Below are positions 2,159 to 49,385 of a stretch of 51,438 bases of DNA, piece after piece. The position numbers and the translations under genes are program-made. Each line of letters opens with the position of its first letter. Within the stretch, counting starts at the first letter, position 1. Source of the DNA: a phage; sequence record PZ754631.1; one strand, given 5' to 3'. The notes beneath the pieces were generated by a model. It was not told the origin of the DNA. It was given only the letters and a program-made list of their open reading frames with translations, and searched no databases.

Positions 2159-3439
2159 ATGAGTAAATCACGAATCGTTAAGGCTGACGGCTACAACGAG
2201 ATCTTTAAAGGCGAAAATTGCAAATCGCGAGTAGAGCAACCATTCTACATGCAATCAATGCCATACAAGACACTTGCTGACTTTTACGAAAAAGACGGCC
2301 TAGCAAAAAGGGTTATTGACGTAGTACCAGAGGAAATGGTTTCCCCTGGCTTCACGGTTGACGGCGTGGCAGACGAGGCAGCATTCCGTTCTTTGTGGGA
2401 TGAGAAGCGATTGAATGCAAAAATTATTGATGCGCTTTGCTGGTCGCGTTTGTTTGGCGGATCTGCAATCATTGCTCTTGTTCAGGATGGGCGGGCGCTC
2501 AAATCACCTGTAAAGCCTGGGGCCATGCTGGAAGATGTGCGCGTTTATGATCGTTATCAGATTCGCGTTGAAGCGCGCGAAACTAATCCACGCAAGGTTC
2601 GCTATGGCGAGCCAGTGCTTTACACTGTAACGCCGGGCGGAGACTTGCCGGAATACCAGGTACACTACACGCGCGTTTGCATTATCGACGGTGAGCGGAT
2701 ACCTAACGCAAAGCGACGCAGCAATGATGGCTGGGGTGAGTCAGTTCTTAACAAGCGACTTGTTGAGGCTATTGTTGATTATAACTATTGTGAAACGTTG
2801 GCAACGCAATTATTGCGGCGGAAGCAACAGGCTGTATGGAAGGCTAAAGGACTCGCTGACTTGTGCGATGATGAGGAAGGTGTTAGCGCGGCACGCCTGA
2901 GACTTGCGCAGGTTGACGACGAGGGCGGTGTTGGCAAAGCAATTGGTATTGATGCTGAGGATGAGGAATATGATGTTCTTAATTCTGACATCAGCGGCGT
3001 TGATTCTTTCTTGGAAAAGAAAATGGATCGCATCGTTTCCCTTTCAGGTATTCATGAAATCATCCTGAAAAATAAAAACGTTGGCGGCGTTAGCGCAAGC
3101 CAAAACACGGCGCTTGAAACATTCTATAAGCTGATTGAACGAAAACGAGTTGAGGATTACAAGCCTATTCTTGAATTTCTATTGCCGTTCATCATTAGTG
3201 AGCAGGAGTGGAGCATTGAGTTTTCACCTTTGAGCGTACCTAGCGATAAAGATCAGGCTGAAATTCTGAATAAGAATATAGACTCAATCAGCAAGGCTAT
3301 TGATGGTCAGTTCCTTGATGTTGAAGAAGCGCGAGACACGTTGCGAGCAATCGCCCCAAGCGTTAAACTAAAGGAAACTAATAAAATCAAGCTGCCGGAG
3401 CCGACTGAGCCGGAGCCAGGCACACAGGGGAATGAGTAA
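2159..3439 (+). CDS. portal protein
   Basis: 426 aa between terminase and head-morphogenesis gene; strong RBS GGAGG. Confidence 0.75.
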   Translation: MSKSRIVKADGYNEIFKGENCKSRVEQPFYMQSMPYKTLADFYEKDGLAKRVIDVVPEEMVSPGFTVDGVADEAAFRSLWDEKRLNAKIIDALCWSRLFGGSAIIALVQDGRALKSPVKPGAMLEDVRVYDRYQIRVEARETNPRKVRYGEPVLYTVTPGGDLPEYQVHYTRVCIIDGERIPNAKRRSNDGWGESVLNKRLVEAIVDYNYCETLATQLLRRKQQAVWKAKGLADLCDDEEGVSAARLRLAQVDDEGGVGKAIGIDAEDEEYDVLNSDISGVDSFLEKKMDRIVSLSGIHEIILKNKNVGGVSASQNTALETFYKLIERKRVEDYKPILEFLLPFIISEQEWSIEFSPLSVPSDKDQAEILNKNIDSISKAIDGQFLDVEEARDTLRAIAPSVKLKETNKIKLPEPTEPEPGTQGNE

Positions 3440-4206: not shown

Positions 4207-5319
4207 ATGAAGGCAAAACAAAGATTTGATAGCGTCCAGGTTAAGGCGCATTTTGATGATAATGGCTTTTTAGTAGATCGCCCAATTGTGGCGCGAATTG
4301 GTTTGCAGGAGTACCGCACACCGTATGGAATCAGACGAGAGTTCCGACCAGCGTCAGAAGTGTTTAAGGCGGATTCGCTTGCTACGTTCGCAGGCAAGCC
4401 GATCACTATCGGTCACGTCACAGTGACGCCAGATAATGCGGATCAGGTTGTTGTTGGTTCATGCGCTGGTGCTGGTGTTCCAAATGGTGTTGGCGTTGAA
4501 GTTCCGTTAAGTATTTACTCAAAGCGAGCAATTGAGAGCGCAAAAAAGAAAGACACGGCGGAAATTTCAGTTGGTTACACATCAATTGATATTGATAAAC
4601 CAGGTTGGGGCAATAATAAAACTGGCGATTACTTGTTTGAGGAAGACATTAAGGAAGACTGGAAGCCTGACTCCCCTGATTGGGTTAAATTTGACGCCAT
4701 TCAGACGAATATCCGTGTTAATCACATTGCGCTCGTCTTTCGTGGTCGCGCTGGAATTGCCAAATTAAATCTTGATAGTGAACAGGATTTTCCGTATAGT
4801 GACGAGGTTCTAAATGACAAAGGAGATGAGGAAATGACAGTAAAAATTAAACTTGATGGCGCGGTAGAATTTGATGTTCCAAAGGCCGTTGCTGATCATA
4901 TTGAGGCGTTAAAGGCAGATGCAAAAGCTGCAACCGAAAAGGCTGATGGCCTTGAGGCCGAGCGCGACGCCCTGAAAACTAAAGTCGATGGCATTCCGAC
5001 GCAGATTGCAGAAGCTGTTAAGAAGGCAAAGACTGACGCAGAAGAACACGCCAAGCTAGTTGCAGATGCAACTGAAATTGGCATCAAGTGTGACGGCTTG
5101 GACGCTAAAGCGATCAAAGTTGCTTACGTCAAAGAAGTCACTGGCGCTGATATTTCAGAAAAAGCCGATGCATATATTGAAACAGCTTTTGACCTTGCGA
5201 AGCAGTCTGATAAAATGGCGGCGCAGCGTAAATCTGTTAAGGGCGATTCTTTCGAGTCTGGCAAGAGTGAAAAAACCGACTCCCTTGATCCGACTGCGCG
5301 TTTGAAAAAACTTAAATAA
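4207..5319 (+). CDS. head scaffolding protein (possible protease-scaffold fusion)
   Basis: 370 aa; C-terminal half is Ala/Lys/Glu/Asp-rich predicted coiled coil; located between morphogenesis gene and capsid. Confidence 0.55.
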   Translation: MKAKQRFDSVQVKAHFDDNGFLVDRPIVARIGLQEYRTPYGIRREFRPASEVFKADSLATFAGKPITIGHVTVTPDNADQVVVGSCAGAGVPNGVGVEVPLSIYSKRAIESAKKKDTAEISVGYTSIDIDKPGWGNNKTGDYLFEEDIKEDWKPDSPDWVKFDAIQTNIRVNHIALVFRGRAGIAKLNLDSEQDFPYSDEVLNDKGDEEMTVKIKLDGAVEFDVPKAVADHIEALKADAKAATEKADGLEAERDALKTKVDGIPTQIAEAVKKAKTDAEEHAKLVADATEIGIKCDGLDAKAIKVAYVKEVTGADISEKADAYIETAFDLAKQSDKMAAQRKSVKGDSFESGKSEKTDSLDPTARLKKLK

Positions 5320-5889: not shown

Positions 5890-6324
5890 ATGAGTGATTA
5901 TTCAGTCATTGTTGGCGCTGAGTCGCCAGGGTGCATGGTCGATTCTTCAATAATGGTGATTAACGGATCTTTCGTGTGCGGAGATGAATTTATTGCGCCA
6001 GGTAAGATTGTGCGACTATCACATATAACAAATGGATACAAAATAGCAAGTGTTAATGGGGATCTAGTTATTGGCGTGGCAGTAAGGCCGCCGGACTCGT
6101 GCATATATGAGGAGGGTGATACCGTTAATGTGGTTAGTAGAGGTAGTGTGTGGTGCTTAACTTCTGAGAGCGAAGCGCCAGAATATGGAGATAAAGTATT
6201 TGTAACTCAAGATGGAGATGCGGCATACAGTGAAGGAGACTTGCTGATTGGTTGGATCTTTACTGGCGAACATGTAAAGGTTGATCATGATTCATATATT
6301 GTCGGGGTAAGCATTAGCGCATAA
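5890..6324 (+). CDS. head-associated structural protein, paralog 2
   Basis: 144 aa; same motif order as 5332-5844 (IGVAVR..G.VWCL..G.KVFV.QDG); immediately upstream of major capsid gene. Confidence 0.5.
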   Translation: MSDYSVIVGAESPGCMVDSSIMVINGSFVCGDEFIAPGKIVRLSHITNGYKIASVNGDLVIGVAVRPPDSCIYEEGDTVNVVSRGSVWCLTSESEAPEYGDKVFVTQDGDAAYSEGDLLIGWIFTGEHVKVDHDSYIVGVSISA

Positions 6325-6407: not shown

Positions 6408-7382
6408 ATGGAAAAAGAAAAATTTGATCAGCTAGATGCGGATATTGTTTCTAGCTATCTAGCTACTCGCGGCGTTAAGGGTGATGCTTCTGATATGGGT
6501 ATCTGGACGGCGCAAGAGCTTCACAAGATCCGCTCAACTGCTTACGAGAAAGAGTATCCGGCAGGTTCGGCACTTCGTGTGTTCCCTGTAACTAATGAGC
6601 TTTCTGATACTGATAAAACTTTTGAATACCAGATGTTTGATAAAGTTGGTTACGCAAAAATTATTGCTGATTACACCGACGATCTGCCGACCGTTGACGC
6701 GCTGATGTCTAGCGAATTTGGTAAAGTGTTCCGCTTGGGTAACGCGTTCTTGATCTCCATTGACGAAATCAAGGCTGGTCAGCGTACTGGTAAGAGCCTT
6801 TCCACTCGCAAGGCAAACGCAGCGCAAAACGCTCATGATCAGGAAGTTAACCGCCTGGTGTTTAAGGGTTCAAAGCCGCATAAGATTCTTTCGGTGTTTG
6901 AACACCCTAACCTGACAAAGATCGTGTCAACTGGCTGGTTAAGTGCTGATGAAAACACTAAGTTCCCGCAGGCAGCATCTGATGAACTGGAAAAGGCTAT
7001 TGAAACCATTCAGACCATCACCAATGGTCAGCACCGAGCAACCAACATCCTGATTCCGCCGTCTATGCGCAAGGTTCTTTCCGTTCGAATGGAAAACACC
7101 ACTGAAAGTTATCTGGAATACTTCCAGAAACAAAACAGCGGAATCACCATTGACTCAATCGCAGAGCTTGAGGATATTGATGGCGCAGGAACGAAAGGTT
7201 GCCTGGTATATGAGAAAGACCCGATGAACATGTCGATCGAAATTCCAGAAGCATTTAACATGCTTCCTGCGCAACCAAAAGATCTGCATTTCAAAGTTCC
7301 GTGTACTTCAAAATGTACTGGCCTGACGATTTACCGTCCGTTTACGCTAGTGCTTATTACTGGCTTGAAAAAATCAGGTTAA
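6408..7382 (+). CDS. major capsid protein
   Basis: 324 aa; strong RBS GGAGG; flanked by intrinsic terminators (hallmark of highly expressed capsid gene); position in head module. Confidence 0.8.
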   Translation: MEKEKFDQLDADIVSSYLATRGVKGDASDMGIWTAQELHKIRSTAYEKEYPAGSALRVFPVTNELSDTDKTFEYQMFDKVGYAKIIADYTDDLPTVDALMSSEFGKVFRLGNAFLISIDEIKAGQRTGKSLSTRKANAAQNAHDQEVNRLVFKGSKPHKILSVFEHPNLTKIVSTGWLSADENTKFPQAASDELEKAIETIQTITNGQHRATNILIPPSMRKVLSVRMENTTESYLEYFQKQNSGITIDSIAELEDIDGAGTKGCLVYEKDPMNMSIEIPEAFNMLPAQPKDLHFKVPCTSKCTGLTIYRPFTLVLITGLKKSG

Positions 7383-7758: not shown

Positions 7759-8175
7759 ATGGTTGATGAATTTTTCACTGACGCAGAAATCACGCAGCAA
7801 ATCGTGAAATTAGCTCCACCGATGAAACAGATTGATCCAGATTTAATGGTGGCATGGATTGATCTGGCAAAGGAATTTGTTTGCAAGAAGCGGTTTAAAG
7901 AATCATATCCCAAAGCGGTTGCTCTTTATACGTTGCACCTTATGACGCTTGACGGAGCCATGAAGCAAGAGGGGGAAAGCGTAGAAAGTTACTCGCGGCG
8001 AGTTGCGTCATTTTCCCTGACTGGTGAATTTAGCCAGACATTTGATCGCGTGTCCGGCGATTCAAGCGGAAAAGAGATTAGACAAACTCCGTGGGGCAAA
8101 ATGTATGAGACGTTAAATAGAAAAAAAGGCGGTGGATTTGGCCTTGTGACTGGATTTCGGAGGCGCTGCAAATGA
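7759..8175 (+). CDS. head-tail connector/adaptor-like protein
   Basis: 138 aa; position between capsid and neck genes; RBS GGAGG. Confidence 0.45.
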
Positions 8176-8543
8176 ACTATAACGAGATCGCAAGAATGGC
8201 AACCGAAGGAATTAACTTCTTTAGTGATGGCAACGGTGAGTTTAAGTGCATAACGCAGCGTGGAAGCGTTGAAATCATCGGAGGCGAAGAAGTAGAAAAG
8301 CCAGAGATTAGTGTAATGATTAATGGTTTAATTAGATCACCCAAAGTCCGAGAGGTTGACGGCGAGACAATACGAGTAACCGATAAGTTGGGAGTTTTTA
8401 ACAATAAAGTTGAAATTAAGAACGGGTATCATATTGATGTTGATGGTGAATTATATGTTGTAGTTGAAGCAAGACCAATCAGGCAAACCAATGTCACTGT
8501 TGCTTATCGGCCTATTTTGAGAAGGATTTCTGTACATGGCTAA
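8172..8543 (+). CDS. head-tail joining (neck) protein
   Basis: 123 aa; translationally coupled (ATGA overlap) to neighbours in neck module. Confidence 0.45.
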
Positions 8544-8979
8544 AAACTACACGATAAGGGAATTTCACGGCAACATTGATGCGTGGATAAACGCCATTGA
8601 TAATGGCCTGAAAGATTGCGTTGAGTTGTTCGCCGAAAAAGTGCATACAGATCTTGTTAAGCGTTCTCCGGTTGATACTGGGCGTTACCGTGCAAACTGG
8701 CAGGTAACAGCAAACAAGCCGCCATTGTATGCGCTTAACCAGTACGATAAGCACGGAGACAAAACGATCGCGGAAGGCAAGCGCGCCATATACGCGATTT
8801 TACGAGGTGGCGGCGCAGTAAGAGCCATTTATTTTTCTAACATGCTTATTTATGCTAACGCGCTTGAGTACGGTCATTCAAAACAAGCGCCAGCGGGTGT
8901 GCTTGGTATTGTTGCCGTGAAATTGCGTTCATATATGGCTGAGGCAATAAAAGAGTCGAGGGCAAAAAATGCACTATGA
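8536..8979 (+). CDS. HK97 gp10-like neck/tail component
   Basis: 147 aa; contains SPVDTGRYRANW resembling the HK97 gp10 family signature. Confidence 0.6.
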   Translation: MAKNYTIREFHGNIDAWINAIDNGLKDCVELFAEKVHTDLVKRSPVDTGRYRANWQVTANKPPLYALNQYDKHGDKTIAEGKRAIYAILRGGGAVRAIYFSNMLIYANALEYGHSKQAPAGVLGIVAVKLRSYMAEAIKESRAKNAL

Positions 8980-26006: not shown

Positions 26007-27977
26007 TTAACTCTCAAGAGTTGTGGGCTTGTTGATCAATGCAGAAACAGCCGCCTTCAGTTCTTCAACCTCCTTTTCAAGTTTTGATATTCTTTCTTTG
26101 TTTTCAACATCACGCGCACGTAGAGCCTTTATTGCAGCCAAGCCATCAAGAAGCATCGGAGTTTGGTCAAGATGCCAAAAACCCCCAACATCCTTAACAT
26201 ATTCTCGGTCGATCTGCTTAATTTGCTGTGATATAACCCCTCTTCTTGTTGCGCCTCTGATTTCTTTAGTATGATGCTCATCTTTAAACTTGAATAGCTT
26301 AAACTCCATTCTATCTATGTTTGATAGCGCGCATTCAACGTCAAGATTTCCTAGTACATCATTCATTCTTTCATCAGACACCGCCGACGTCGTTACTTGC
26401 GCCCATGCAGACCACGAAGAAGCATTTGTCTGTATCCTTGTATAAATGCGGTTAGATGTGTCGTAGAATCTCTGTTGGTTCCACCTGCCATTAACACCTT
26501 GTGATGCAGTTTTTCCTTGAGATAATCCTTGCGTTGTTTGTGTAAATAGAGAACCATACGCATTACCAGAATAAGGTGCGTTTGAGTAAGCCCCACCAAT
26601 ATTAAGCCATCCTTGAGGAACAACATTAAAATCCTTTACATCACCAATACCAAGTATATTTGAATTTCCGTTAGGAGAAAGACCACCATCAAACGATACA
26701 TACATCCTCAGTGTTGAGTCTGGCCTTGGTATAGTAACTATGTTTCTTCCAGTGCTGTTATTCCCATTCGCAAAGAACACATTTAAAGCAGTTGACCTGT
26801 CATTCTCAAAGGATATTCTTCTTCCTATTGTGCTGTCATCAACCTGACTAGTTTTTAATGTTATAGCAGGCCAGGTTGTATGTACTGTCATACCAGCAAA
26901 AGTAGGTGAGTGTTGACTATTAAGCCCGATATTGTTACGAATCCCATTTGCATCTTTCGCACCTGTTCCACCTTTATCTATTGGTAAAGCTATACCACTA
27001 TTTGATGTAGAATCCCATGCACCCCAATCGCCATTATTTTTTACGAAAATTCGCTTTGTTCCATCAGCACTTAAAACGAAAGTTTCACCAGATTCTTCAG
27101 TTGTCTGCTTCAATCTGTCTACGCTTAGGTTTTTTCTTGCCTCACCTTTATCTGCAACATCGCTAAGGTTGTTGTTTTTGTTAAGCATATTTGCCGGATT
27201 TATGCTATCCGCATATTCTTTCGCCTTATCTTCAGAAGCCTTAGCGGCATTTTTTGAAGCCAGAGCATCAGAAGCAGATCTGGCAGCTTCGCTTTTGCTT
27301 GTACTCGCCGCGATTTCTGAATTTTTGGCATTTGTCTCGGACGTCTTTGCTGCATTCTGAGAAGCGAGCGCAGCATCCTGAGAATTTTTAGCGGCAATCT
27401 TGCTTTCATTGGCTGCATTCTCTGAATTTTTGGCATTTGTCTCCGACGTCTTTGCTGCGATCTTGCTCGCGTTGGCTGCGTTTTCTGACTCTTTGGCATT
27501 AGTCTCTGACGCTTCTGCTTCGTTCTTTGAATTAAGCGCATCAGCAGCAGATCTTGCCGCGGCATCCTTACTTTGATTCGCAGACGCTGCGTTTTCTTCC
27601 ACCTGTTTAGCCAAATCCTGATAATGCTTCCAATCAAACGTCTTAAAAAATTCCAGCGCTTCCCCGATCTCTGATTCTTTACTCTGATAGTAGCGCAATG
27701 TTTCAGCTACATCTTGAGCAAGCCCATCAACAGTTATTGAGTCATGAAGCAAGATCGCGTAATTTGAGCGAGTAACTACCGCGCCACCAGTTGTAATTGC
27801 ACGAATGCTTGTATCGTTAATAACTTCAGTTATCACGGCAATCTGCAACGGCTGAGTTAAAAATACAATAGTTGCACCAGGGCGAATGAGCGTTAGTTGC
27901 TCTCGCCATTTCGTGTCGTATCCAGTGATATAACCTTGAGCGTCCATTGACGCTTGTCCGGTTCTGTAAATTGCCAT
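26007..27977 (-). CDS. tail fibre protein with C-terminal intramolecular-chaperone-like domain
   Basis: 656 aa (start at MAIYRTG with RBS AGGAGA); Ala/Ser/Asn/Lys/Glu-rich tandem repeats; C-terminal SDERMN segment resembling S74 self-cleaving chaperone domains. Confidence 0.7.
   Translation of the reverse strand: MAIYRTGQASMDAQGYITGYDTKWREQLTLIRPGATIVFLTQPLQIAVITEVINDTSIRAITTGGAVVTRSNYAILLHDSITVDGLAQDVAETLRYYQSKESEIGEALEFFKTFDWKHYQDLAKQVEENAASANQSKDAAARSAADALNSKNEAEASETNAKESENAANASKIAAKTSETNAKNSENAANESKIAAKNSQDAALASQNAAKTSETNAKNSEIAASTSKSEAARSASDALASKNAAKASEDKAKEYADSINPANMLNKNNNLSDVADKGEARKNLSVDRLKQTTEESGETFVLSADGTKRIFVKNNGDWGAWDSTSNSGIALPIDKGGTGAKDANGIRNNIGLNSQHSPTFAGMTVHTTWPAITLKTSQVDDSTIGRRISFENDRSTALNVFFANGNNSTGRNIVTIPRPDSTLRMYVSFDGGLSPNGNSNILGIGDVKDFNVVPQGWLNIGGAYSNAPYSGNAYGSLFTQTTQGLSQGKTASQGVNGRWNQQRFYDTSNRIYTRIQTNASSWSAWAQVTTSAVSDERMNDVLGNLDVECALSNIDRMEFKLFKFKDEHHTKEIRGATRRGVISQQIKQIDREYVKDVGGFWHLDQTPMLLDGLAAIKALRARDVENKERISKLEKEVEELKAAVSALINKPTTLES
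27250..27560 (-). repeat. in-frame tandem repeats inside tail fibre gene (~105 bp period with sub-repeats)
   Basis: near-identical 38-mers TCTGAATTTTTGGCATTTGTCTC(G/C)GACGTCTTTGCTGC at ~27316 and ~27421; protein-level NAK(N/E)SENAAN(A/E)SKIAAK repeats. Confidence 0.6.
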
Positions 27978-28035
27978 GCGTTTTCTCCTATGTTGCATGT
28001 TAATGTCAATGCAGATAATAGCATTTGCTAAGGCC

Positions 28036-28058
28036 AAAAAAAACCCCGCAATGCGGGG
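28036..28058 (-). terminator. intrinsic terminator (minus strand) between primase and tail fibre
   Basis: CCCCGC-AAT-GCGGGG with run of T on minus strand. Confidence 0.6.
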
Positions 28059-28075: not shown

Positions 28076-29008
28076 TTAGAGAATTGATTCAGGTTTGAAA
28101 ACCCTCCTCTCTATCCCTTGCCTGTAATTATCATTAATCGGCATCATAATTTCAAGTCCTCTTTCCTCGGCAGCAATGATCGCGTCACGATCTGTGCTCT
28201 TACAGACAACTCGCATTCTTCTGTTGCCTTTGTACCTGTAAGCTACAATCTCAATGTTAGTTGCATCAAAACAGGCCCAAACCTCCTGACCAGTTGCAAG
28301 ATGAATATGTTGCGCATCAATCCAGTCAACGCAAAGATAGATCGTCTTATCTGTACTTCCTGTTCTCACAACCGATCCGCGCGTGTAGTCCTTTGCGAGA
28401 AAAGACTGTTTACCTTCTTCATCAATGAAAAGCACATTGCACATTTCATCATCAACATCATCGGAATGTACCAGGTAACATGGGAGCGCGTGAATGTATC
28501 GACCATCTTTAACGCCGCAATCATAATGACCATCTTCAGGCGGGTATATTCCTTCATATGTGCTTAACGGCGTGCGATCAAATTTTAATGTTTTTGACAT
28601 AACGCGCTCGCAGCATTCATGGCTTGCCTGCTTCCCAAACGAATAACCAGAATCACGAGACACTCGCTTATTTGCCTTGATTCTATAGTCCTGCGGAACT
28701 TTTCCAAGAAAGCGGCCCAAAATATTGATCACTTCGCTGTAAGGTTCTCCGGTTAGCTTCATGATCCAACCAATTCCAGTATCATTACCGCACACGTTGC
28801 AGATCGCACCGCCATCGCCTTTTTTATCGCCAAGTTTATCTGTCCACCTGAATCGATCCTTTCCGCCGCAGTGGGGGCAAGATTGATGCTTGCCGTTAAA
28901 AACTTCATTTGGAAGACCGCAAATACTTTGTAGCGCCTCACGCCACAATCCTTGCATATATGGGAGAACATCTTCCTTTTGGTAAACCATAAAGTTTTCG
29001 TTGTTCAT
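28076..29008 (-). CDS. DNA primase-like protein (zinc-ribbon)
   Basis: N-terminal CPHCGG...CNVCG zinc ribbon; between HTH protein and tail fibre on leftward unit; start choice uncertain. Confidence 0.6.
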   Translation of the reverse strand: MNNENFMVYQKEDVLPYMQGLWREALQSICGLPNEVFNGKHQSCPHCGGKDRFRWTDKLGDKKGDGGAICNVCGNDTGIGWIMKLTGEPYSEVINILGRFLGKVPQDYRIKANKRVSRDSGYSFGKQASHECCERVMSKTLKFDRTPLSTYEGIYPPEDGHYDCGVKDGRYIHALPCYLVHSDDVDDEMCNVLFIDEEGKQSFLAKDYTRGSVVRTGSTDKTIYLCVDWIDAQHIHLATGQEVWACFDATNIEIVAYRYKGNRRMRVVCKSTDRDAIIAAEERGLEIMMPINDNYRQGIERRVFKPESIL

Positions 29009-29062
29009 ATGCACCTCAAACAAAAAGCCTGACAGATGATAACATCATGCCAGGCATTGTTT

Positions 29063-29536
29063 TTAGCAATTAGTGCTTTCAGGTTTATACAGGAATCCGC
29101 CAGGTTCATAATCTGACATTCTTACCACTCGCAACATTTCACGCTTATCACATCTCTTTGTGAGCGGTTTACCATTGGAATCAAATCGCAGGTCTGGACG
29201 GCAGAATGAAGCGCGATAGCCTTGACAGCCATATTTTTTGTAATCGTTATGCACCTTTTGAGCGCCAGCGGCTGAAATCATACCGCGAACGCGCCACTGA
29301 TTTACAGTTTGCTGGCTAACGTTAAGACGCTTTGCCATTGCTGACACGCTGCCGTAATACTCAATAAGAATGTCAAGCCGTGCTTTTAGTCCGGCGCGCA
29401 CTTCATCTTTTAAAACATAGTATCCTGTAGGGCGCTTGCGCTTCTTCTTATCCTTCCCTCGTCGAGTTCCGTTGTTTCCATTAATTGTGCGCTTGTCAAT
29501 CTTGCCAGTTGATACTGCGATTCGCTGTTCTTTCAT
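29063..29536 (-). CDS. HTH DNA-binding protein (Cro/CI-type)
   Basis: 157 aa; basic N-terminus and HTH-like segment MAKRLNVSQQTVNQWRVRGMIS. Confidence 0.6.
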   Translation of the reverse strand: MKEQRIAVSTGKIDKRTINGNNGTRRGKDKKKRKRPTGYYVLKDEVRAGLKARLDILIEYYGSVSAMAKRLNVSQQTVNQWRVRGMISAAGAQKVHNDYKKYGCQGYRASFCRPDLRFDSNGKPLTKRCDKREMLRVVRMSDYEPGGFLYKPESTNC

Positions 29537-29548
29537 TATTCATTCTCC

Positions 29549-29592
29549 AATAGCATTTTTTGTTAAACGATGATTTAATGATTGTGTATTAT
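29549..29592 (+). promoter_or_regulatory. early promoter cassette driving helicase operon
   Basis: AATAGCATTTTTTGTTAAAC, 18-bp spacer, TATTAT. Confidence 0.5.
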
Positions 29593-29625
29593 ACACGCCA
29601 AATGGCATTACTCAAAGGTTTTAGA

Positions 29626-31671
29626 ATGATTCCAAACATTGAAAAGCAAATATCAGCACTTGGTGAAGCGGTAATTAAATCCATTCAGGAGCGATTCACT
29701 GTTGGCGAGATTGTGCCTTACCCTTACCAGTGCGTTGCATACGCTGAGATCGCAAAGCGTATGAAAAATTATGAGCATCCATTCTTTGTTAAAGCGTCCG
29801 TATCGGCTGGCAAAACATTGATGTTTGCAATGGTTGCTCACCAGTGCCGGAAAATGGGATTGAAAATGATGGTCCTTGCTCGCCAGGCTGAGATTGTGGA
29901 TCAGGATTCTGAAGAGATAACAAATCTTGGTGTGCCGAACTCCATCTATTGTGCAGGACTGAAGACAAAAAGCGCATACTTTCCGATCGTTGTTGGTTCT
30001 GAGGGAACTGTAGTTAATGGACTGTTTAAAGCGCTTGGCGACTATGTTCCGCACGTTATCGGGATTGATGAATGTCACCAGGTGGATTGGGAAGACCTTG
30101 CCGACGCAATAGAGAAAGACGAATCATTTTTACAAATGACAACGAAGAAAGGCGAAAAAGTACCAAATCCAGATTATGACATAACAAAGGGAAGCAGGAA
30201 CAGAAATACAGAGTTCCTGATTGGTGAGGATGGCTTGCCAATGGAGGGAACAGGCCGCACACAATACACTGTCATCATCATGGAAATGATGCGACGTTGC
30301 AGGAAAGCATATGGCCATGAACTGCGCATATTTGGCATGACTGGATCGGAGTTTCGCGGCGTAGTCCCAATCCTGGTAGAAGACAAAAAACAGAAAGGAT
30401 TCTGGCGAGAACAGGTTACTAATATTGACACCAACTACCTTATCAAGTTTGGCTCGGTTGTTCCTACAAATTTTGGAGACGTTGGCGATCTAGGGTATGA
30501 CCTTTCAGAGTTTGAGGCATCCAGTGAGGATGGCGTTGCAGACTTTGACGCTAAAACGCTTCGCAGGATGGAACAAAAAATTCATGAAGAAGCGACCATG
30601 ACAAAGCGCATCATGGCGAAAGTTCACGAGATCTGTAAAAACCGCAACGGCGTACTTGTGACATGTGCAGGAGAAAGGCATTGCAAAGAGGCAGCGGCAG
30701 CGTTGCCACCTGGAACTACTTACAGGATAATTACTGGCAAGACTGGCGACAATCAGCGCAAGGAGTGGCTGAGGGAAGCATACGAGGGGAAGGTTAAATA
30801 CATCTTCCAGGTGCAGGCGCTAACAACTGGCGTTAACGTGCCGTTTTGGGATACGTCTGTTATTCTGCGTAAGATTGGATCGCTAACTTTGCTGATTCAG
30901 CTTTTAGGACGCGGAATGCGACTTCTTAAGAAATGGCATAAGGAACAAGGCTTCAAGAAAGATGATCACCTGGTTATGGATTTTTCAGGAACGATGGACG
31001 AGTTAGGTGAGCTTTATTTTGATCCGATACTGGAACAGGCGCAACATCAGAAGCGATTCAGGAACGGTAAAGATCCGAAGCCTTGCCCTATTTGCGGAAC
31101 TCTTAACAGCTATTACGCTCGTCGTTGTATGCACGTAGACGAAAACGGAAACAGATGCGAGTGGTTCTTTAAATTCAGGACGTGTGATGATCAGATTGAC
31201 CCGCGCACTAAAAAGATTATTCAGCGCGGCTGTGGAACTAAAAATGATATTGCGGCCAGGGTATGCAGACATTGCGACATGTCATTGATTGACCCTAACG
31301 AGAAGTTAAGCGGAAAGCACTACACAAAAAACGACTGGTTCCAGGTGCAATCTTTCTCGGTTGACATGACGAAAAACCAGAAAGGGATAATATTTAATTA
31401 TGAGCTTTCCGATGGCATAGACACTTTCAGGGCGAGAGAGATATTTTTCCCTGAGTCTGAGAGCCAAATTTGCCGCGCAAAATGGCGAAGCGTTGCTCTT
31501 AAGCACATACCGGATCTCCGTGTTGCTGGCATGGTGGCGAGCTATCGTAACGCACGAAAAATAATGCAATATGTTAATCACATCATGCCACCATCGCGCG
31601 TGACTCACCGCAAGACTAGCAAGGGTGAAGATAATTTGTACAAGAAGGACTTTAATTATGGCAATGACTGA
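29626..31671 (+). CDS. superfamily 2 DEAH-box helicase with C-terminal Cys-rich zinc-finger region
   Basis: Walker A-like VSAGKT, DEAH-like GIDECHQ, multiple CxxC pairs C-terminally; start at ATG after promoter module (alternative leaderless ATG ~29602). Confidence 0.7.
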   Translation: MIPNIEKQISALGEAVIKSIQERFTVGEIVPYPYQCVAYAEIAKRMKNYEHPFFVKASVSAGKTLMFAMVAHQCRKMGLKMMVLARQAEIVDQDSEEITNLGVPNSIYCAGLKTKSAYFPIVVGSEGTVVNGLFKALGDYVPHVIGIDECHQVDWEDLADAIEKDESFLQMTTKKGEKVPNPDYDITKGSRNRNTEFLIGEDGLPMEGTGRTQYTVIIMEMMRRCRKAYGHELRIFGMTGSEFRGVVPILVEDKKQKGFWREQVTNIDTNYLIKFGSVVPTNFGDVGDLGYDLSEFEASSEDGVADFDAKTLRRMEQKIHEEATMTKRIMAKVHEICKNRNGVLVTCAGERHCKEAAAALPPGTTYRIITGKTGDNQRKEWLREAYEGKVKYIFQVQALTTGVNVPFWDTSVILRKIGSLTLLIQLLGRGMRLLKKWHKEQGFKKDDHLVMDFSGTMDELGELYFDPILEQAQHQKRFRNGKDPKPCPICGTLNSYYARRCMHVDENGNRCEWFFKFRTCDDQIDPRTKKIIQRGCGTKNDIAARVCRHCDMSLIDPNEKLSGKHYTKNDWFQVQSFSVDMTKNQKGIIFNYELSDGIDTFRAREIFFPESESQICRAKWRSVALKHIPDLRVAGMVASYRNARKIMQYVNHIMPPSRVTHRKTSKGEDNLYKKDFNYGND

Positions 31672-34962: not shown

Positions 34963-35178
34963 ATGAAAGATTTTTTAAACGCTGCAACTTCCGGCACTGG
35001 CGGCGCGTCAATCACTGGCGCTGTAACTGGTCAAACAACCATTGCAATAGCCAGCTTCGTTTTGATGGCTGCATTTGGTATGTGGGGCGCTTATCTTCGC
35101 TGGCGTGATAGTAAGGCGCTACGTGACGCGCTTGAATGCGGTGATATTAAGAAAGCTATTGAGATCAGAGGTAAATAA
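34963..35178 (+). CDS. holin (probable pinholin)
   Basis: 71 aa; hydrophobic TM segment(s) and charged C-terminus; directly upstream of SAR endolysin. Confidence 0.7.
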
Positions 35179-35666
35179 TGAGTATAAAACAAAGAGTGAC
35201 CGCTGCGGCTTTTGGCGTTGCTCTTGCCCTTACTTCTCCGCTACTGGAGGAAATAGAAGGAGTAAAACATAAGCCTTACAAAGATATTGCTGGGATATGG
35301 ACGGTTTGCGCCGGAATAACTGGACCTGACGTAATACCAGGCAAAACGTACACACAAAGAGAGTGCGATGCGCTACTGGCAAAGCATATCAAGATCGCAA
35401 AGGATGAAGTTGATAAACGTGTGAAGGTTGACATTCCTGATACAATGCGCGCGGCGATGTATTCATTCACATACAATGCTGGCACTGGTGCTTTTAGAAA
35501 TTCAACTATGCTTAAGCTGATTAATAACGGTCGTTATATGGAAGCGTGCAATCAGTTATGGCGATGGACAAAATACACCAATCCAAAAACAGGAAAGAAA
35601 GAAACGTCTAAAGGACTGCGTAACCGCCGCGCGGTGGAATTTAAATATTGCATTAAGGATCTGTAA
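35178..35666 (+). CDS. SAR endolysin (lysozyme, E-x8-D-x5-T catalytic triad)
   Basis: weakly hydrophobic Gly/Ala-rich N-terminal SAR-like segment; [16 protein letters not shown] triad spacing. Confidence 0.8.
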
Positions 35667-35668
35667 TC

Positions 35669-36055
35669 ATGAGAAAGTTATCAGCAATCGCGATCGCTGT
35701 TATTTTGTCTGGATGTTCAAGCGTTACGCCACTGACCGGATTGATAGGAAGCAAGCCTGAGATAACAGCACAGGCAGGAGCAGAGAACGTAAAGCAGACC
35801 GTTGGCGTTACCGCAAAGCAGGACACCAGTACAAAACAGGAAACTACAATAAAGGAATCTGCGGTTGATAAGGTGGACACGTCCAGCAAGAAGGATTTCA
35901 CTACATCAACCATTCAGGCTAACACCATCAAGGCTGATAAAATCCAGGTCGTGCAAGGTAATAACGGCAGATGGTACGACCCCATAATCATATGCGTGGT
36001 TGTGCTCATTGTGCTGATTTGGCTTTACTGGAGGGAAAAGAAAAAGGAGGCTTAA
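35669..36055 (+). CDS. unimolecular spanin (T1 gp11-like)
   Basis: N-terminal lipobox LSGC plus C-terminal TM helix (IIICVVVLIVLIWLYW); last gene of lysis cassette. Confidence 0.75.
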   Translation: MRKLSAIAIAVILSGCSSVTPLTGLIGSKPEITAQAGAENVKQTVGVTAKQDTSTKQETTIKESAVDKVDTSSKKDFTTSTIQANTIKADKIQVVQGNNGRWYDPIIICVVVLIVLIWLYWREKKKEA

Positions 36056-36068
36056 CGCCTCCTTTGTT
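36041..36068. terminator. bidirectional terminator after spanin gene
   Basis: GGAGGC-TTAAC-GCCTCC flanked by A-run and T-rich tail. Confidence 0.6.
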
Positions 36069-36261
36069 ATTCAATACGCTTTACAGTAACCAACAAAACG
36101 CCGTCCTCATCACACAAATTATGCTCTGATATATCAAACGCTCGCATGTCAGAATGAATGAGCGTTAACATTGCGTGCATGAAATCGTCATGTGAGATTG
36201 AACTTACGGCGCAGAACTTCAATATTTTGTCTATTAGCATTTGACGTAAACAATTCTTCAT
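36067..36261 (-). CDS. hypothetical small protein
   Basis: 64 aa ORF overlapping upstream gene end by 74 nt; start uncertain. Confidence 0.3.
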   Translation of the reverse strand: MKNCLRQMLIDKILKFCAVSSISHDDFMHAMLTLIHSDMRAFDISEHNLCDEDGVLLVTVKRIE

Positions 36262-36580
36262 CGCTCATTTCTCCGATCCGTAAAACATCCCTTACCCATT
36301 CGTTTTGCATACCTTCAAGGCTGTAAAGTTCAAACGAGAAAGGGCGATTTGCCGATCCTTTCTTACACCAGAACTTTCCACCAACTCCATCAAGATAACC
36401 AGCGGTCATCATTCTTGCGCAAAACTCTTTTGAAACAGCAGTCGCAAACATTCTCGGCGTAAATCCTGCGGCCCTTGCGAGCCGCTCACATTCTCTATGC
36501 TGAAATATAAATTTTGCGATATGTTGACGTGTAAACCATTCGAATGACTCACACCAGCGATACAGATCCAGAAGAAACAT
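36188..36580 (-). CDS. hypothetical protein
   Basis: 130 aa; start overlaps stop region of ATPase gene (coupled). Confidence 0.5.
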   Translation of the reverse strand: MFLLDLYRWCESFEWFTRQHIAKFIFQHRECERLARAAGFTPRMFATAVSKEFCARMMTAGYLDGVGGKFWCKKGSANRPFSFELYSLEGMQNEWVRDVLRIGEMSDEELFTSNANRQNIEVLRRKFNLT

Positions 36581-36582
36581 AA

Positions 36583-38166
36583 TTACCCCAGCAATGTTGG
36601 ATTTACGAAAACAACGCCATTAATCACGCAAATATAGTTTCTTTCCTCAAGCATCGGAAGCAGTTGCGTTTCCATGCGCTTCATTACGCCAGCCTGACCA
36701 ACAAACGGCTTAACTTTTCGTGCAGCCTCATATATGGCGCGAACATTCAAGATTCCCTTATTAGCCTTTCCGTGTCGAGTGATAATCTCGATTAGTTTAC
36801 CCATTTCAGCATCATCACCAGCGTAGCCAGAAGCGTTGGCGGCGCTAATGTATGTTTTGCTCAACTCGCTAAACATCAGCAGTGCTTCCTGAACGGTTTC
36901 AACCTCAATCTCTTTCGACTTTTGAGGGTATCCACCAGGATTAAACCAATTGCGGATAGTGTGCAAAACTGAAGCAATCCTGATCACCTGCTTATCCATT
37001 TTGCCAAGCGCACCGCGCAGCATTGTATGCGAATACTTTCCTCCATCAGCAAGGTGCGGCTCCATCTCCTGACGAGCCATGTTAAGAACTCGCATTGCTG
37101 ATTTGCTGATCTTAAGCTGGATGTTTGATTCACTCATGATGTTATGGATCAGCTTAAAATATTGACTTTTCAGTTCTCCATCAACAGGCTCATAAGTCGA
37201 ATCACCGTTATCATCAACAAACTTTCTACGGCCTAAAAATGATTCCTCACGCACAAGCAAATAACGCTCACTTACACCGATACCGCGCGATCCTGCATCC
37301 ATGATGGCATTGATTGTTTCATCCTGGGCAATTACCGCCATACAGCCAAGAGCTTTAAAACTCATATTGTTGTCAGCGTTTGCACGAGCTATAGAAACAT
37401 GACCATGATCCCATGCTTTCAGCACAAGTTCGCTGTTGGTTTTACGTTCGCTATTGGCATATGTCAGACCTAAAAGGCTGTTAATACTCGTTGCCTCGTC
37501 TGAAATCACAGCAAAGTTACCCTGGCGATTGTTGATTCTTGCAAGTCCTTCCGGCGTGGTGTCGGACACAGGGAAAACGATGTCACACATCTTTTCCAGC
37601 TTTTCTTCCAGATCTTCTTTCTCCTGGTACAGAGATTCCATATCAGCGCCGGAACGCTCGCTTTTCATCTCTTTTGCAAGACCTGCCAACTTTGCCTGAA
37701 TCTTTTTTCTTTCCTTCTTTCGCTGATCGTTAATTCTTTCCACTTCCGCAACCATTGGAGCAAGTGCCAGGCTGTTAACGGCAGATTTACCAGTTGAAGG
37801 AGGCTGGCTTGTGACAACATAAAGAGCGGTCGGCTGATCCGTTCCGTGATACTCAACCGTGAAGCGTCCAAGCATTGCAGCAGACACGCAGCCGATAAAA
37901 TGCATATATGCCGATGATTCAGGGAACTGAACTGATCGAGCAATGTTGCGCGCCAACTTTCCAACAACATCAACATCATTGCCAAGAGAAATTACAGGGT
38001 AGCGATCGTTTCCGTTATTAACATCATTAACCTCACCCCAAAAGCTGGACGATTGACGGTATCCGTTTGCCTGAATGGACACGCGCACCGGAGACAATCC
38101 TTGTGCATCAGCTAATTCGATAATTTGTTTTGGTGTTAGTTTATTGGTTTCAAACGAAAAATTCAT
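36583..38166 (-). CDS. P-loop NTPase (primase-associated/D5-like ATPase candidate)
   Basis: 527 aa from MNFSFETNK (RBS AAGGAG); Walker A-like PPSTGKS and Walker B-like FAVISDE; Lys/Glu coiled-coil insert; own promoter module. Confidence 0.6.
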   Translation of the reverse strand: MNFSFETNKLTPKQIIELADAQGLSPVRVSIQANGYRQSSSFWGEVNDVNNGNDRYPVISLGNDVDVVGKLARNIARSVQFPESSAYMHFIGCVSAAMLGRFTVEYHGTDQPTALYVVTSQPPSTGKSAVNSLALAPMVAEVERINDQRKKERKKIQAKLAGLAKEMKSERSGADMESLYQEKEDLEEKLEKMCDIVFPVSDTTPEGLARINNRQGNFAVISDEATSINSLLGLTYANSERKTNSELVLKAWDHGHVSIARANADNNMSFKALGCMAVIAQDETINAIMDAGSRGIGVSERYLLVREESFLGRRKFVDDNGDSTYEPVDGELKSQYFKLIHNIMSESNIQLKISKSAMRVLNMARQEMEPHLADGGKYSHTMLRGALGKMDKQVIRIASVLHTIRNWFNPGGYPQKSKEIEVETVQEALLMFSELSKTYISAANASGYAGDDAEMGKLIEIITRHGKANKGILNVRAIYEAARKVKPFVGQAGVMKRMETQLLPMLEERNYICVINGVVFVNPTLLG

Positions 38167-38193
38167 TGGTGATAACTCCTTTTTGATGCGGCA

Positions 38194-38239
38194 ATAATAC
38201 CGCACCAATGCTACCCGCATTTAACAAAAAATGCTATTT
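38194..38239 (-). promoter_or_regulatory. early promoter cassette (minus) driving P-loop ATPase gene
   Basis: minus strand AAATAGCATTTTTTGTTAAAT, ~19 bp, TATTAT. Confidence 0.45.
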
Positions 38240-38455
38240 GATCCGCTCTATGCTAACTAAGATTTTTTCTGGTTCCCTTGCGCTATTGCAATGCGCGGTT
38301 ACAGAATCAGCAAAATCAAAGTAAAGTGATTTGTGATATGATAATCCAATCAGCCACCCAACCATTGTTTTCTTTATTGGCCTGACTATATCGCCAGGCT
38401 TGAAGGTTTTTGTTGCTGAATGAGTCACCTTATAGCGATATTCAGCCTTGATCAC
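38234..38455 (-). CDS. hypothetical protein
   Basis: 73 aa; stop TAG embedded in promoter motif. Confidence 0.5.
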   Translation of the reverse strand: MIKAEYRYKVTHSATKTFKPGDIVRPIKKTMVGWLIGLSYHKSLYFDFADSVTAHCNSAREPEKILVSIERIK

Positions 38456-38838
38456 TTATACATAGCCTCAAACAAATGACATCCACCAGCGGAAAATCCA
38501 ACTTCTTCGCGGTATAGCGTCCAGCGGTCGCCAGCCTCATCAAACACATAACCAGCAACAGCGCCAAGCGCGCGGCCTTGCTCAATCTGGTAGCGCTTTC
38601 CTTCTTTGAAATGCTTTTTGCACGGAATCTTGTGATCTACAAAGGTGCATTTAATTGTTTTTGTTTTGATATGACGATAGTCAGACTCAACAGCGTTTTG
38701 CCACTTGCTACCCTTTGTAATGTTCTTTACCTGGAATTGCTCCAACTCGATCACATCATTGCTACCAGCAATTTTTTCGTATACAGCTTTATAACGACCG
38801 TTCATCAAAACGTTGGTTTTATTGCAGATAACTTTCAT
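38452..38838 (-). CDS. hypothetical protein
   Basis: 128 aa; RBS AAGGAG; preceded by promoter module. Confidence 0.55.
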   Translation of the reverse strand: MKVICNKTNVLMNGRYKAVYEKIAGSNDVIELEQFQVKNITKGSKWQNAVESDYRHIKTKTIKCTFVDHKIPCKKHFKEGKRYQIEQGRALGAVAGYVFDEAGDRWTLYREEVGFSAGGCHLFEAMYK

Positions 38839-38869
38839 CGTTTATTTCTCCTTTCGTTTCGGTGAGTTG

Positions 38870-38915
38870 ATTATGCCAGGCTTTTACACCTGGCTTTTAA
38901 CAAAAAGTGCTATTT
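38870..38915 (-). promoter_or_regulatory. early promoter cassette (minus)
   Basis: minus strand AAATAGCACTTTTTGTTAAAA, 19 bp hairpin (GCCAGG..CCTGGC), CATAAT. Confidence 0.5.
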
Positions 38916-39620
38916 TGCGTTTGCTTCAAAGACTGCGCGAGCAAAACCGCGCGGAGTGAGGGAGCGGATCATCTTTGTGCGAGATGATTTTCCGCCAGTT
39001 TTGGCCCAACCTGGATTATCCTTGTCGCCATCTTTAGGAATGATTGTTGCGCGCGGAGGAATAACAAATCCGTTTCCAGTCCAAAGGCATGTTTTCTTAA
39101 AGTACCGATCCCGCGCCGGAATAATATCAGGGAAGTCGGGATGCTTATCATCTTCCGGCAGATAGCCAGCATAATCGCACGGATGGAACGTATAATCAGG
39201 CTTTCGCCATAACGTTGACAACTTGCCAACCGGATTTTCGATCATGTAAGGAACACCGAAATAATCAGCTATATCAGCCGCGATCCTGCAAGTGTCGGCG
39301 GCCTCATCCTGGAATGATGGATTCTCAAGGCGCTTTTTGGCCCAATGGCGAGATCCGCTATTTGCAAGGTCGGTGCACGGCGGAAATGCCATAATAAAGT
39401 CAGGAATACCCCATTCCTCACAGCGCGCGCGGTGGTAAAATATTTCATCAATCCAGACGTTAACGTATTCGATATTCTCATGCTGTATGCGCACTGAGTG
39501 GTAATCACCGTGATCAGCATCATCGTAATTAAAGCAAATGCATTTATATCCAGCACCAGCCCAATCTTTAACGGCTTTACCAGATCCATCAAACAAAGAG
39601 AAAATTAAACCCTTATACAT
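38910..39620 (-). CDS. compact C5-cytosine methyltransferase-like protein
   Basis: motif I-like LFDGSG, motif IV-like FPPCTDLANSG (Cys present, Q replaced by T), motif VI-like ENPVG, motif IX-like LTPRGFARAV; 236 aa, no obvious target-recognition domain. Confidence 0.55.
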   Translation of the reverse strand: MYKGLIFSLFDGSGKAVKDWAGAGYKCICFNYDDADHGDYHSVRIQHENIEYVNVWIDEIFYHRARCEEWGIPDFIMAFPPCTDLANSGSRHWAKKRLENPSFQDEAADTCRIAADIADYFGVPYMIENPVGKLSTLWRKPDYTFHPCDYAGYLPEDDKHPDFPDIIPARDRYFKKTCLWTGNGFVIPPRATIIPKDGDKDNPGWAKTGGKSSRTKMIRSLTPRGFARAVFEANAK

Positions 39621-40281: not shown

Positions 40282-40326
40282 AATATACCAATCAGGCGCA
40301 TACCGGTTTTAACAAAAAGTGCTATT
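40282..40326 (-). promoter_or_regulatory. early promoter cassette (minus)
   Basis: minus strand motif, 19 bp, TATATT. Confidence 0.5.
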
Positions 40327-43098: not shown

Positions 43099-43362
43099 AT
43101 GGTTATGATGAAAATTCGCAAAGCAACAGATGATTTCATTCGCAGTAATGCGGAAAGCGGTCGCCTGTATGTTGCATTCGTGGAACGCAAGAGAAAGCGC
43201 GGAAAGATCGTTGCGACTGAGCGGTTATTCAAGATGAAGCCGAGAAATGAATGCGAATGCAAAAAGGATTCCGGTTTTTACTTCGGATGCTGTTGCAGCA
43301 CGATAGAAAACGCGCGAATGCTTATAGATGAAGGAAAAGTATACTTCAATCCGGCAGAATAG
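43099..43362 (+). CDS. hypothetical Cys-rich protein
   Basis: 87 aa; CECKK...GCCCS cluster; stop TAG embedded in promoter motif. Confidence 0.5.
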   Translation: MVMMKIRKATDDFIRSNAESGRLYVAFVERKRKRGKIVATERLFKMKPRNECECKKDSGFYFGCCCSTIENARMLIDEGKVYFNPAE

Positions 43363-43402
43363 CACTTTTTGTTAAAACGCCAGGCGCAAAGCCTGGCATA
43401 AT
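43358..43402 (+). promoter_or_regulatory. early promoter cassette (stop codon embedded)
   Basis: AATAGCACTTTTTGTTAAAAC, 19 bp hairpin GCCAGG..CCTGGC, TG-n-CATAAT. Confidence 0.55.
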
Positions 43403-49342: not shown

Positions 49343-49385
49343 TAGCACTTTTTGTTAAAACTTCCGCGAGGGCATTTGTTAAAGT
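49341..49385 (+). promoter_or_regulatory. early promoter cassette (weaker -10)
   Basis: AATAGCACTTTTTGTTAAAAC, 19 bp, TAAAGT. Confidence 0.4.

Follow-up and report, generated by a model that had tools for sequence, protein, structure and literature searches.

The 51,438-nucleotide (nt) stretch of phage DNA analysed here (sequence record PZ754631.1; the whole stretch is called the window) is the genome of a T1-like siphovirus (family Drexlerviridae, Hanrivervirus-type). The first of three minus-strand genes at the distal end of its leftward arm encodes a 527-amino acid (aa) protein of the DUF3987 family that is probably the helicase of the phage replication fork. In the whole reading that we favour, to which we give a probability of about three in four, this helicase acts with a phage DnaG-type primase and the host DNA polymerase, and the product of the next gene, of 130 aa, serves as a cofactor. 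The reading rests on family, fold, motifs, conservation, synteny and the association of relatives with primases. An earlier note on this DNA had described a P-loop ATPase and two small downstream open reading frames (ORFs), of 130 and 64 aa, converging on the lysis cassette. All of these are present (Table 1), and the three genes face those for holin (34963-35178), endolysin (35178-35666) and spanin (35669-36055, plus strand). Among the roles considered in that note, the one in replication has held up, with a replication helicase as the function that sequence comparison supports best. Over positions 35900-38500 the window shares 98.2% identity with Escherichia phage Henu8 (Tempevirinae, Hanrivervirus) and 95-97% with some thirty further related records.

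Family, motifs and predicted fold of the helicase

The Pfam profile DUF3987 (PF13148) matches the 527-aa protein with an E value of 1.9e-43 and 149.5 bits against a cut-off of 27, and profile positions 3-350 of 364 align to it as one unbroken stretch. Its PHROGs match is phrog_2373, 'DNA helicase' (E 1e-245). Henu8 gp63, labelled 'DNA helicase' in RefSeq, is 100% identical, and the 'DNA helicase' ST9 of phage T1 shares 57% protein identity. The helicase gene is thus already known and annotated in public genomes, and no accessory or D5-like flag is warranted. A Pfam search did not find the DnaB domain in the protein, and NCBIfam and PADLOC gave nothing meaningful for the five proteins searched.

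Conservation was followed in an alignment of 43 homologues and in a distant set of 131 representatives of at least 450 aa, drawn from the 150 best matches of an exhaustive search that gave 2374 relatives with E values of at most 0.001. The Walker A (PPSTGKS) and Walker B (VISDE) motifs reported earlier are present and conserved. In the P-loop, residues Q121, P122, P123, S124, G126, K127 and S128 are invariant in the 43 homologues, and the motif is kept in the distant set. In the Walker B strand E224 is invariant and D223 nearly so among close homologues. The family-wide form of this strand is hhhhS[D/A/S]E, in which the glutamate is the sole invariant residue; in distant DUF3987 proteins A or S often takes the place of the usual Mg-binding aspartate. 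The stretch GVSERYLL resembles the SRF motif of MCM; it has the invariant residues G297, E300 and R301, its [ED]RF core is retained in the distant representatives, and R301 (in GVSERF) is the putative arginine finger. Further invariant features of the 43-homologue alignment are R261 and the A-Q of VIAQDE.

The Lys/Glu coiled-coil insert singled out in the earlier note exists as a segment, since residues 135-195 are 34% K+E and 41% K+E+R, but it is nothing special to this protein. The spacing between Walker A and Walker B is 60-98 aa (median 90) in the 131 distant representatives, and the Pfam profile spans the segment unbroken; the Lys/Glu-rich segment is therefore a family-wide property of DUF3987.

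An AlphaFold model built from the 43-homologue alignment has a predicted local distance difference test score (pLDDT) of 89.2 and a predicted template-modelling score (pTM) of 0.87. It consists of an N-terminal helical region, an AAA+ core, a lid and a C-terminal winged-helix-like domain. The Lys/Glu-rich segment forms a long helical hairpin (helices 127-167 and 173-192) that extends the Walker A helix. A predicted beta-hairpin (strands 256-259 and 268-271) precedes the sensor-1 strand (274-280) and carries the invariant R261 at its tip; it may correspond to the DNA-contacting pre-sensor-1 hairpin of MCM-type helicases. The nearest fold to the AAA+ core is MCM. On the basis of this predicted architecture, the protein is best described as an MCM-like (superfamily 6, SF6) AAA+ ATPase and not as a D5/superfamily 3 (SF3) enzyme.

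Comparison with characterised systems is consistent with this placement. With the MCM proteins (archaeal MCM, eukaryotic MCM2-7, MCM8/9) the 527-aa protein shares an SRF-like ERF motif, a predicted beta-hairpin before sensor 1 and a predicted C-terminal winged helix. However, identity is only 11-19%, the MCM N-terminal OB/Zn domain is lacking, the long helical hairpin after the Walker A helix is extra, and the Walker B aspartate varies in the family. Moreover, the DUF3987 member that has been characterised travels 5'-3', in contrast to the 3'-5' movement of MCM. That member is AgaPH, a PriCT-DUF3987 protein of Seonamhaeicola, which is an oligomeric, ATP/dATP-dependent 5'-3' helicase that needs Walker A and B and binds its primase-polymerase (PMC11724360). 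The phage protein resembles AgaPH in Pfam family, Walker A/B motifs and small C-terminal domain and, through its relatives, in primase association, but has a helical N-terminus of about 100 aa in place of the PriCT domain, and its presumed partner primase is DnaG-type, not an archaeo-eukaryotic primase (AEP), and is encoded about 8 kilobases (kb) away. The likeness to DnaB lies in the likely job at the fork with a DnaG-type primase and in relatives that fuse the DnaB N-terminal (primase-binding) domain to DUF3987; the motor itself differs, being AAA+ and not RecA-like.

Conservation of the three genes and the small downstream proteins

In a tblastn search against 50,697 phage records, homologues were found in 921 records for the helicase, 835 for the 130-aa protein and 675 for the 64-aa protein. 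For enterobacterial phages, tallies of helicase and primase records by the first word of the phage name come out close to each other. Gene order is also maintained: the helicase gene, a gap of 2-6 nt, the orthologue of the 130-aa gene, none to two small ORFs and the convergent spanin-endolysin-holin genes follow one another in T1 (ST9, ST10), SRT8, ACG-M12 and KLPN1. The lineages with this order include Tunavirinae (T1, SRT8), Braunvirinae (ACG-M12) and Webervirus (KLPN1), besides the Hanriverviruses (Tempevirinae). In Henu8 and T1, whose ST9 and ST10 are the orthologues of the helicase and the 130-aa gene, a terminator also stands between the 130-aa gene and the lysis genes. T1 differs in that its helicase gene has an HNH endonuclease gene directly upstream and its 64-aa homologue is unannotated. 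In ACG-M12 the 64-aa ORF is absent and the first two genes are in place.

Because of these record counts and the position and order conserved across lineages, we regard all three as core genes of Drexlerviridae, not accessory ones. The earlier suggestion of an accessory module is accordingly given up, since the unit is core, with a clear family for the ATPase, a conserved position and essentially no accessory behaviour.

The 130-aa protein has no family annotation in Pfam, PHROGs or NCBIfam. Its model (pLDDT 88) comprises a winged helix at residues 1-75 followed by short helices. Towards the end of the protein lies a conserved acidic-aromatic motif, MSDEELF (encoded at 36248-36268), in which D107 and F111 are invariant in the alignment and which forms the very C-terminus of the orthologue in some phages. 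By analogy, this SDEELF motif may be likened to the acidic docking tails of replication proteins. A PDB search with the protein's profile found nothing, and fold searches gave just generic winged-helix matches and uncharacterised orthologues. Two entries of Vibrio phage Vc1 in BFVD, A0A6M5CB08 ('helicase', 345 aa) and A0A6M5CCU5 ('DNA primase', 529 aa), match the 130-aa protein over short stretches at 28-55% identity. For Vc1, split or alternative helicase products appear under P0114 and P0045, and the likely cause of the matches is frameshifted or mis-joined gene calls in that record.

The 64-aa protein belongs to phrog_9539 (E 3e-23), has homologues down to about 39% identity, and its start codon is formed inside the codons of the MSDEELF motif. 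Unannotated homologues were seen in T1 (6003-6194, minus strand, of L002; 44% identity) and SRT8 (4413-4586, plus strand, of L010; 43%), each overlapping the 3' end of the 130-aa orthologue, as in the window. A programmed frameshift joining the two ORFs was considered and rejected. It would require a +1 shift, and the 64-aa ORF comes with a GGAGA and an ATG of its own. In some phages, moreover, this ORF is missing and the 130-aa orthologue stops directly behind DEELF, so that two separate, overlapping genes are the simpler explanation.

Replication context and alternative explanations

Kazlauskas et al. (PMC4889955) described DUF3987 proteins as divergent SF6 helicases related to MCM with a winged helix-turn-helix at the C-terminus, often accompanied by AEP or DnaG primases, and predicted them to be phage replicative helicases (also PMC5862659). 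Our comparisons agree with this description. Homologues at 36-39% identity, on metagenomic phage contigs, directly adjoin a Zn-ribbon DnaG-type primase gene, in a module with a superfamily 2 (SF2) DEAD/ResIII helicase, a DUF3799 (RecE-like) nuclease, ERF and SSB; on one contig the order is YdaS/Cro-like helix-turn-helix (HTH) gene, primase, DUF3987. In distant relatives the DUF3987 gene abuts the primase gene or overlaps it by a few bases, and rows of HTH, primase and DUF3987 genes abut on a single strand (987-3718 of L008; 5075-7542 of L007). In more distant relatives DUF3987 is joined in one protein with Zn_ribbon_DnaG, the DnaB N-terminal domain or PriCT_2.

The window encodes the same set, with a Zn-ribbon DnaG-type primase, a Cro/YdaS-like HTH protein and an SF2 helicase (ResIII/Helicase_C) side by side, in addition to VRR-NUC, Dam, DUF3799 (RecE-like), ERF and SSB. 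The HTH and primase genes are together and the helicase gene is about 8 kb off. As distant relatives hold all three in one row, this arrangement would imply that genes were rearranged in the lineage of the Drexlerviridae. According to a published report, T1-like phages have no DNA polymerase of their own (PMC11447400).

The mechanism that we propose is as follows. We infer ring formation, unwinding and polarity: the 527-aa protein most likely assembles into a ring and opens the phage DNA duplex at the replication fork, working with the phage primase and the host DNA polymerase, and helicase and primase presumably recruit the host replisome. Transcription of the helicase gene, at the tip of the leftward early arm, would start from a repeat/-10 element typical of the family. 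The 130-aa gene is probably translationally coupled to the helicase gene and may supply a DNA-binding or helicase-associated cofactor, and transcripts would terminate at a hairpin that also serves the convergent lysis operon.

Several observations weigh against this proposal. The window has a second helicase, the SF2 protein encoded next to the primase, and in phage TLS its counterpart in that position was treated as 'the' helicase (PMC11447400), while the DUF3987 gene stands apart from the primase, unlike in the distant relatives. The Walker B aspartate is variable across the family. PDB sequence searches with the 527-aa protein and with the 43-sequence profile returned nothing beyond chance matches, either short or in coiled coils. 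The role of the 130-aa protein is argued from fold, conserved motif and adjacency. Finally, literature searches found no escape mutant of, or experiment on, the DUF3987 helicase of a T1-like phage.

Among the alternatives, it is unlikely that the 527-aa protein is mainly an initiator or loader, acting in origin recognition and melting like ORC/Cdc6 or in recruitment of host DnaB like DnaC, rather than a fork helicase. Its predicted C-terminal winged-helix domain and small N-terminal helical domain would suit such a role, as would the winged-helix protein encoded right after it and the lack of any other recognised initiator in T1-like phages (PMC8004638). The predicted pre-sensor-1-type hairpin with its invariant arginine argues against it, however, and AgaPH is a true helicase; the fusions to DnaB_N and primase domains, moreover, imply that DUF3987 fills the helicase slot. 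A motor for recombination, repair or branch migration, similar to ComM or other MCM-like/Mg-chelatase-like AAA+ proteins, with the SF2 protein as the replicative helicase, appears quite improbable to us. The rich recombination set of the phage (RecE-like DUF3799, ERF, SSB, VRR-NUC) and the position of the SF2 gene beside the primase favour it, but the ComM/Mg-chelatase-like matches are much weaker than those to MCM, and in distant relatives it is the DUF3987 gene that abuts or overlaps the primase gene or is fused to the DnaG-type Zn-ribbon or PriCT-2. Furthermore, proteins of the SF2 ResIII/Helicase_C kind are not known to be replicative helicases with a ring shape.

The remaining two alternatives are very improbable. 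The earlier note had seen a likeness to D5/DUF3987-type NTPases; the DUF3987 half of this is borne out by the profile match, and the D5 half is not. A D5-like SF3 primase-associated NTPase would have P-loop motifs and a link to primases, as vaccinia D5 does, and both features are present in the protein or its relatives; yet D5_N, Pox_D5 and related Pfam families do not match the protein even at E 0.1, and its fold is nearer to MCM than to SF3. Equally improbable is that the trio is a module with an accessory, host-takeover, defence or anti-defence function at a variable end of the genome. They do lie at the tip of the early arm, where small ORFs come and go, and the two small proteins have no known function in Pfam, PHROGs or NCBIfam. 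Against this stand the high record counts, the same position and order in Hanrivervirus, Tunavirinae and Webervirus, with the first two genes kept in ACG-M12, and the absence of any match to the PADLOC defence models; the variable elements, in addition, are separate units inserted beside the three genes.

Table 1. Coordinates of the helicase unit, its motifs and control elements, and of the primase region (positions in the window)
Feature	Coordinates	Strand	Remarks
527-aa DUF3987-family, MCM-like AAA+ helicase gene (predicted)	36583..38166	-	stop codon included; starts MNFSFE
Walker A / P-loop QPPSTGKS	37783..37806	-	residues 121-128
Long Lys/Glu-rich helical hairpin (AlphaFold)	37591..37788	-	residues 127-192
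Walker B strand FAVISDE	37495..37515	-	residues 218-224
Predicted beta-hairpin before sensor 1	37354..37401	-	residues 256-271
GVSERYLL, candidate arginine finger	37255..37278	-	residues 297-304
C-terminal winged-helix-like domain (predicted)	36586..36816	-	residues 451-527
130-aa winged-helix protein gene (predicted fold)	36188..36580	-	ATG 2 nt past helicase stop
64-aa ORF	36067..36261	-	74-nt overlap with 130-aa ORF, +1 frame; own GGAGA ribosome-binding site 8 nt upstream
17-nt promoter-associated direct repeat of T1-like phages	38220..38236	-	directly upstream of helicase gene
-10-like hexamer TATTAT	38194..38199	-	20 nt downstream of 17-nt repeat
Terminator-like 9-bp GC-rich hairpin	36043..36065	.	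between convergent spanin and 64-aa genes
Zn_Ribbon_Prim DnaG-type primase	28076-29023	-	
Cro/YdaS-like HTH	29063-29536	-	
SF2 helicase, ResIII/Helicase_C	29560-31671		beside primase

Control elements, variable flanks and the upstream neighbour

The promoter cassette that had been proposed for the unit is real as a sequence element. It consists of a 17-nt repeat, TAGCATTTTTTGTTAAA, and the hexamer TATTAT. The first three bases of the repeat are the stop codon of an upstream 73-aa ORF, and other copies, too, often include the stop of the upstream gene. In the window the 17-mer occurs 17 times with up to three mismatches, against 0.48 expected by chance, and all copies are oriented with local transcription. 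Sites of the 17-mer TAGCACTTTTTGTTAAA include 38220-38236, 38896-38912 and 40308-40324 on the minus strand and 43360-43376 and 49343-49359 on the plus strand. Most copies have a CATAAT/TATAAT-like hexamer at the same 20-nt spacing, and in most a conserved leader related to CATCGAAACGA follows. Further copies at 38896, 40308, 40814 and 41952 along the leftward arm show that the earlier picture of this arm was correct. A simple sigma-70 scan did not call the TATTAT site, because it has no canonical -35 at 16-18 nt. In phage TLS the same element was described as a 21-nt direct repeat, aaATAGCACnnnTTGnTAAAA, present in 21 transcription-oriented copies about 76 nt 5' of start codons, with a role undecided among UP element, enhancer site and stoperator (PMC11447400).

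The helicase gene has the ribosome-binding site AAGGAG 9 nt 5' of its start. A 545-aa reading in the program-made ORF list, beginning at the ATG at 38220, was rejected: this ATG lies within the promoter-like element, and homologues and the annotated Henu8 gp63 begin at MNFSFE, which supports the 527-aa start.

At the other end of the unit, the hairpin AAAGGAGGC-loop-GCCTCCTTT contains the spanin stop codon in its loop and folds strongly on both strands (-15.3 and -15.4 kcal/mol; z -3.3 and -2.6). A strong U-run follows on the minus strand only (UUUUUCUUUU), the plus-strand tail being weaker (UUUGUUAUU), and the terminator scan calls the hairpin on the minus strand. The T1 annotation has a rho-independent terminator at the corresponding site on the minus strand, and the hairpin is conserved in KarlJaspers, slyngel and pSf-1. 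It is thus predicted to be terminator-like, strong for leftward transcripts and weaker for rightward ones. The shared bidirectional terminator described earlier is therefore right as to sharing with the spanin gene and plausible in form as to both directions, with a good U-run for one of them.

A search of positions 35900-39000 for iterons or tandem repeats as possible origin marks found none. Elsewhere in the window, a 63-nt tandem repeat (2.1 copies, 81% matches; 27397-27527) lies inside the minus-strand ORF 26007-28037, a tail-fibre gene by comparison with Henu8 gp51.

Variable content is found on both flanks of the three genes. In KarlJaspers, slyngel and pSf-1, the stop of the 64-aa ORF is set apart from the hairpin by an extra segment of about 300 base pairs (bp). 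This cassette consists of a 17-mer, a leader and a 73-aa ORF (phrog_10679), at 1669-1976 of L005 in KarlJaspers and with equivalents in L003 and L004. It is cleanly absent from the window (36066/36067) and from Henu8; apart from the cassette, the identity between these phages exceeds 95%. In SRT8, an unrelated 82-aa ORF (phrog_30053) lies where the cassette sits in the others. HNH endonuclease genes occur beside the helicase in pSf-1 (2490-3002, minus strand, of L004), between helicase and 130-aa gene, and in T1 (8086-8625, minus strand, of L002), just upstream; both resemble insertions of homing endonucleases beside a core gene that is conserved. Since these elements are separate units beside the three genes, the accessory hotspot expected at this position is retained for the flanks only, the three-gene unit itself being core.

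Two genes upstream of the helicase lies a 128-aa ORF (38452-38838, minus strand; phrog_2684) whose product is 74% identical to that of SECphi27 6629-7015 (minus strand, L015). Stokar-Avihail et al. list this SECphi27 product in their supplement as 'protein of unknown function (128aa)'; its expression triggers the defence system Mokosh type I, and its mutation allows phage escape. Orthologues stand upstream of the helicase in T1 (ST7), SRT8, ACG-M12 and KLPN1, and 826 phage records contain the protein.

These neighbours lead to a more speculative, rather doubtful extension, according to which the 128-aa protein, the helicase, the winged-helix protein and the 64-aa protein would together form an unrecognised replication-initiation module of Drexlerviridae, with Mokosh sensing the initiation of replication. 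The 130-aa protein would bind the origin, or dock on the helicase or the host replisome by its acidic tail, and then load the AAA+ ring; the 128-aa homologue of the Mokosh trigger would belong to the same machinery. T1-like phages are without a defined origin, initiator or helicase loader, and the winged-helix gene, tightly linked to that of the helicase, is an obvious candidate for an initiator or loader. The constant place of the 128-aa gene near the helicase may also hint at what Mokosh type I senses, which, if the four proteins do form an initiation module, would be the initiation of phage replication.

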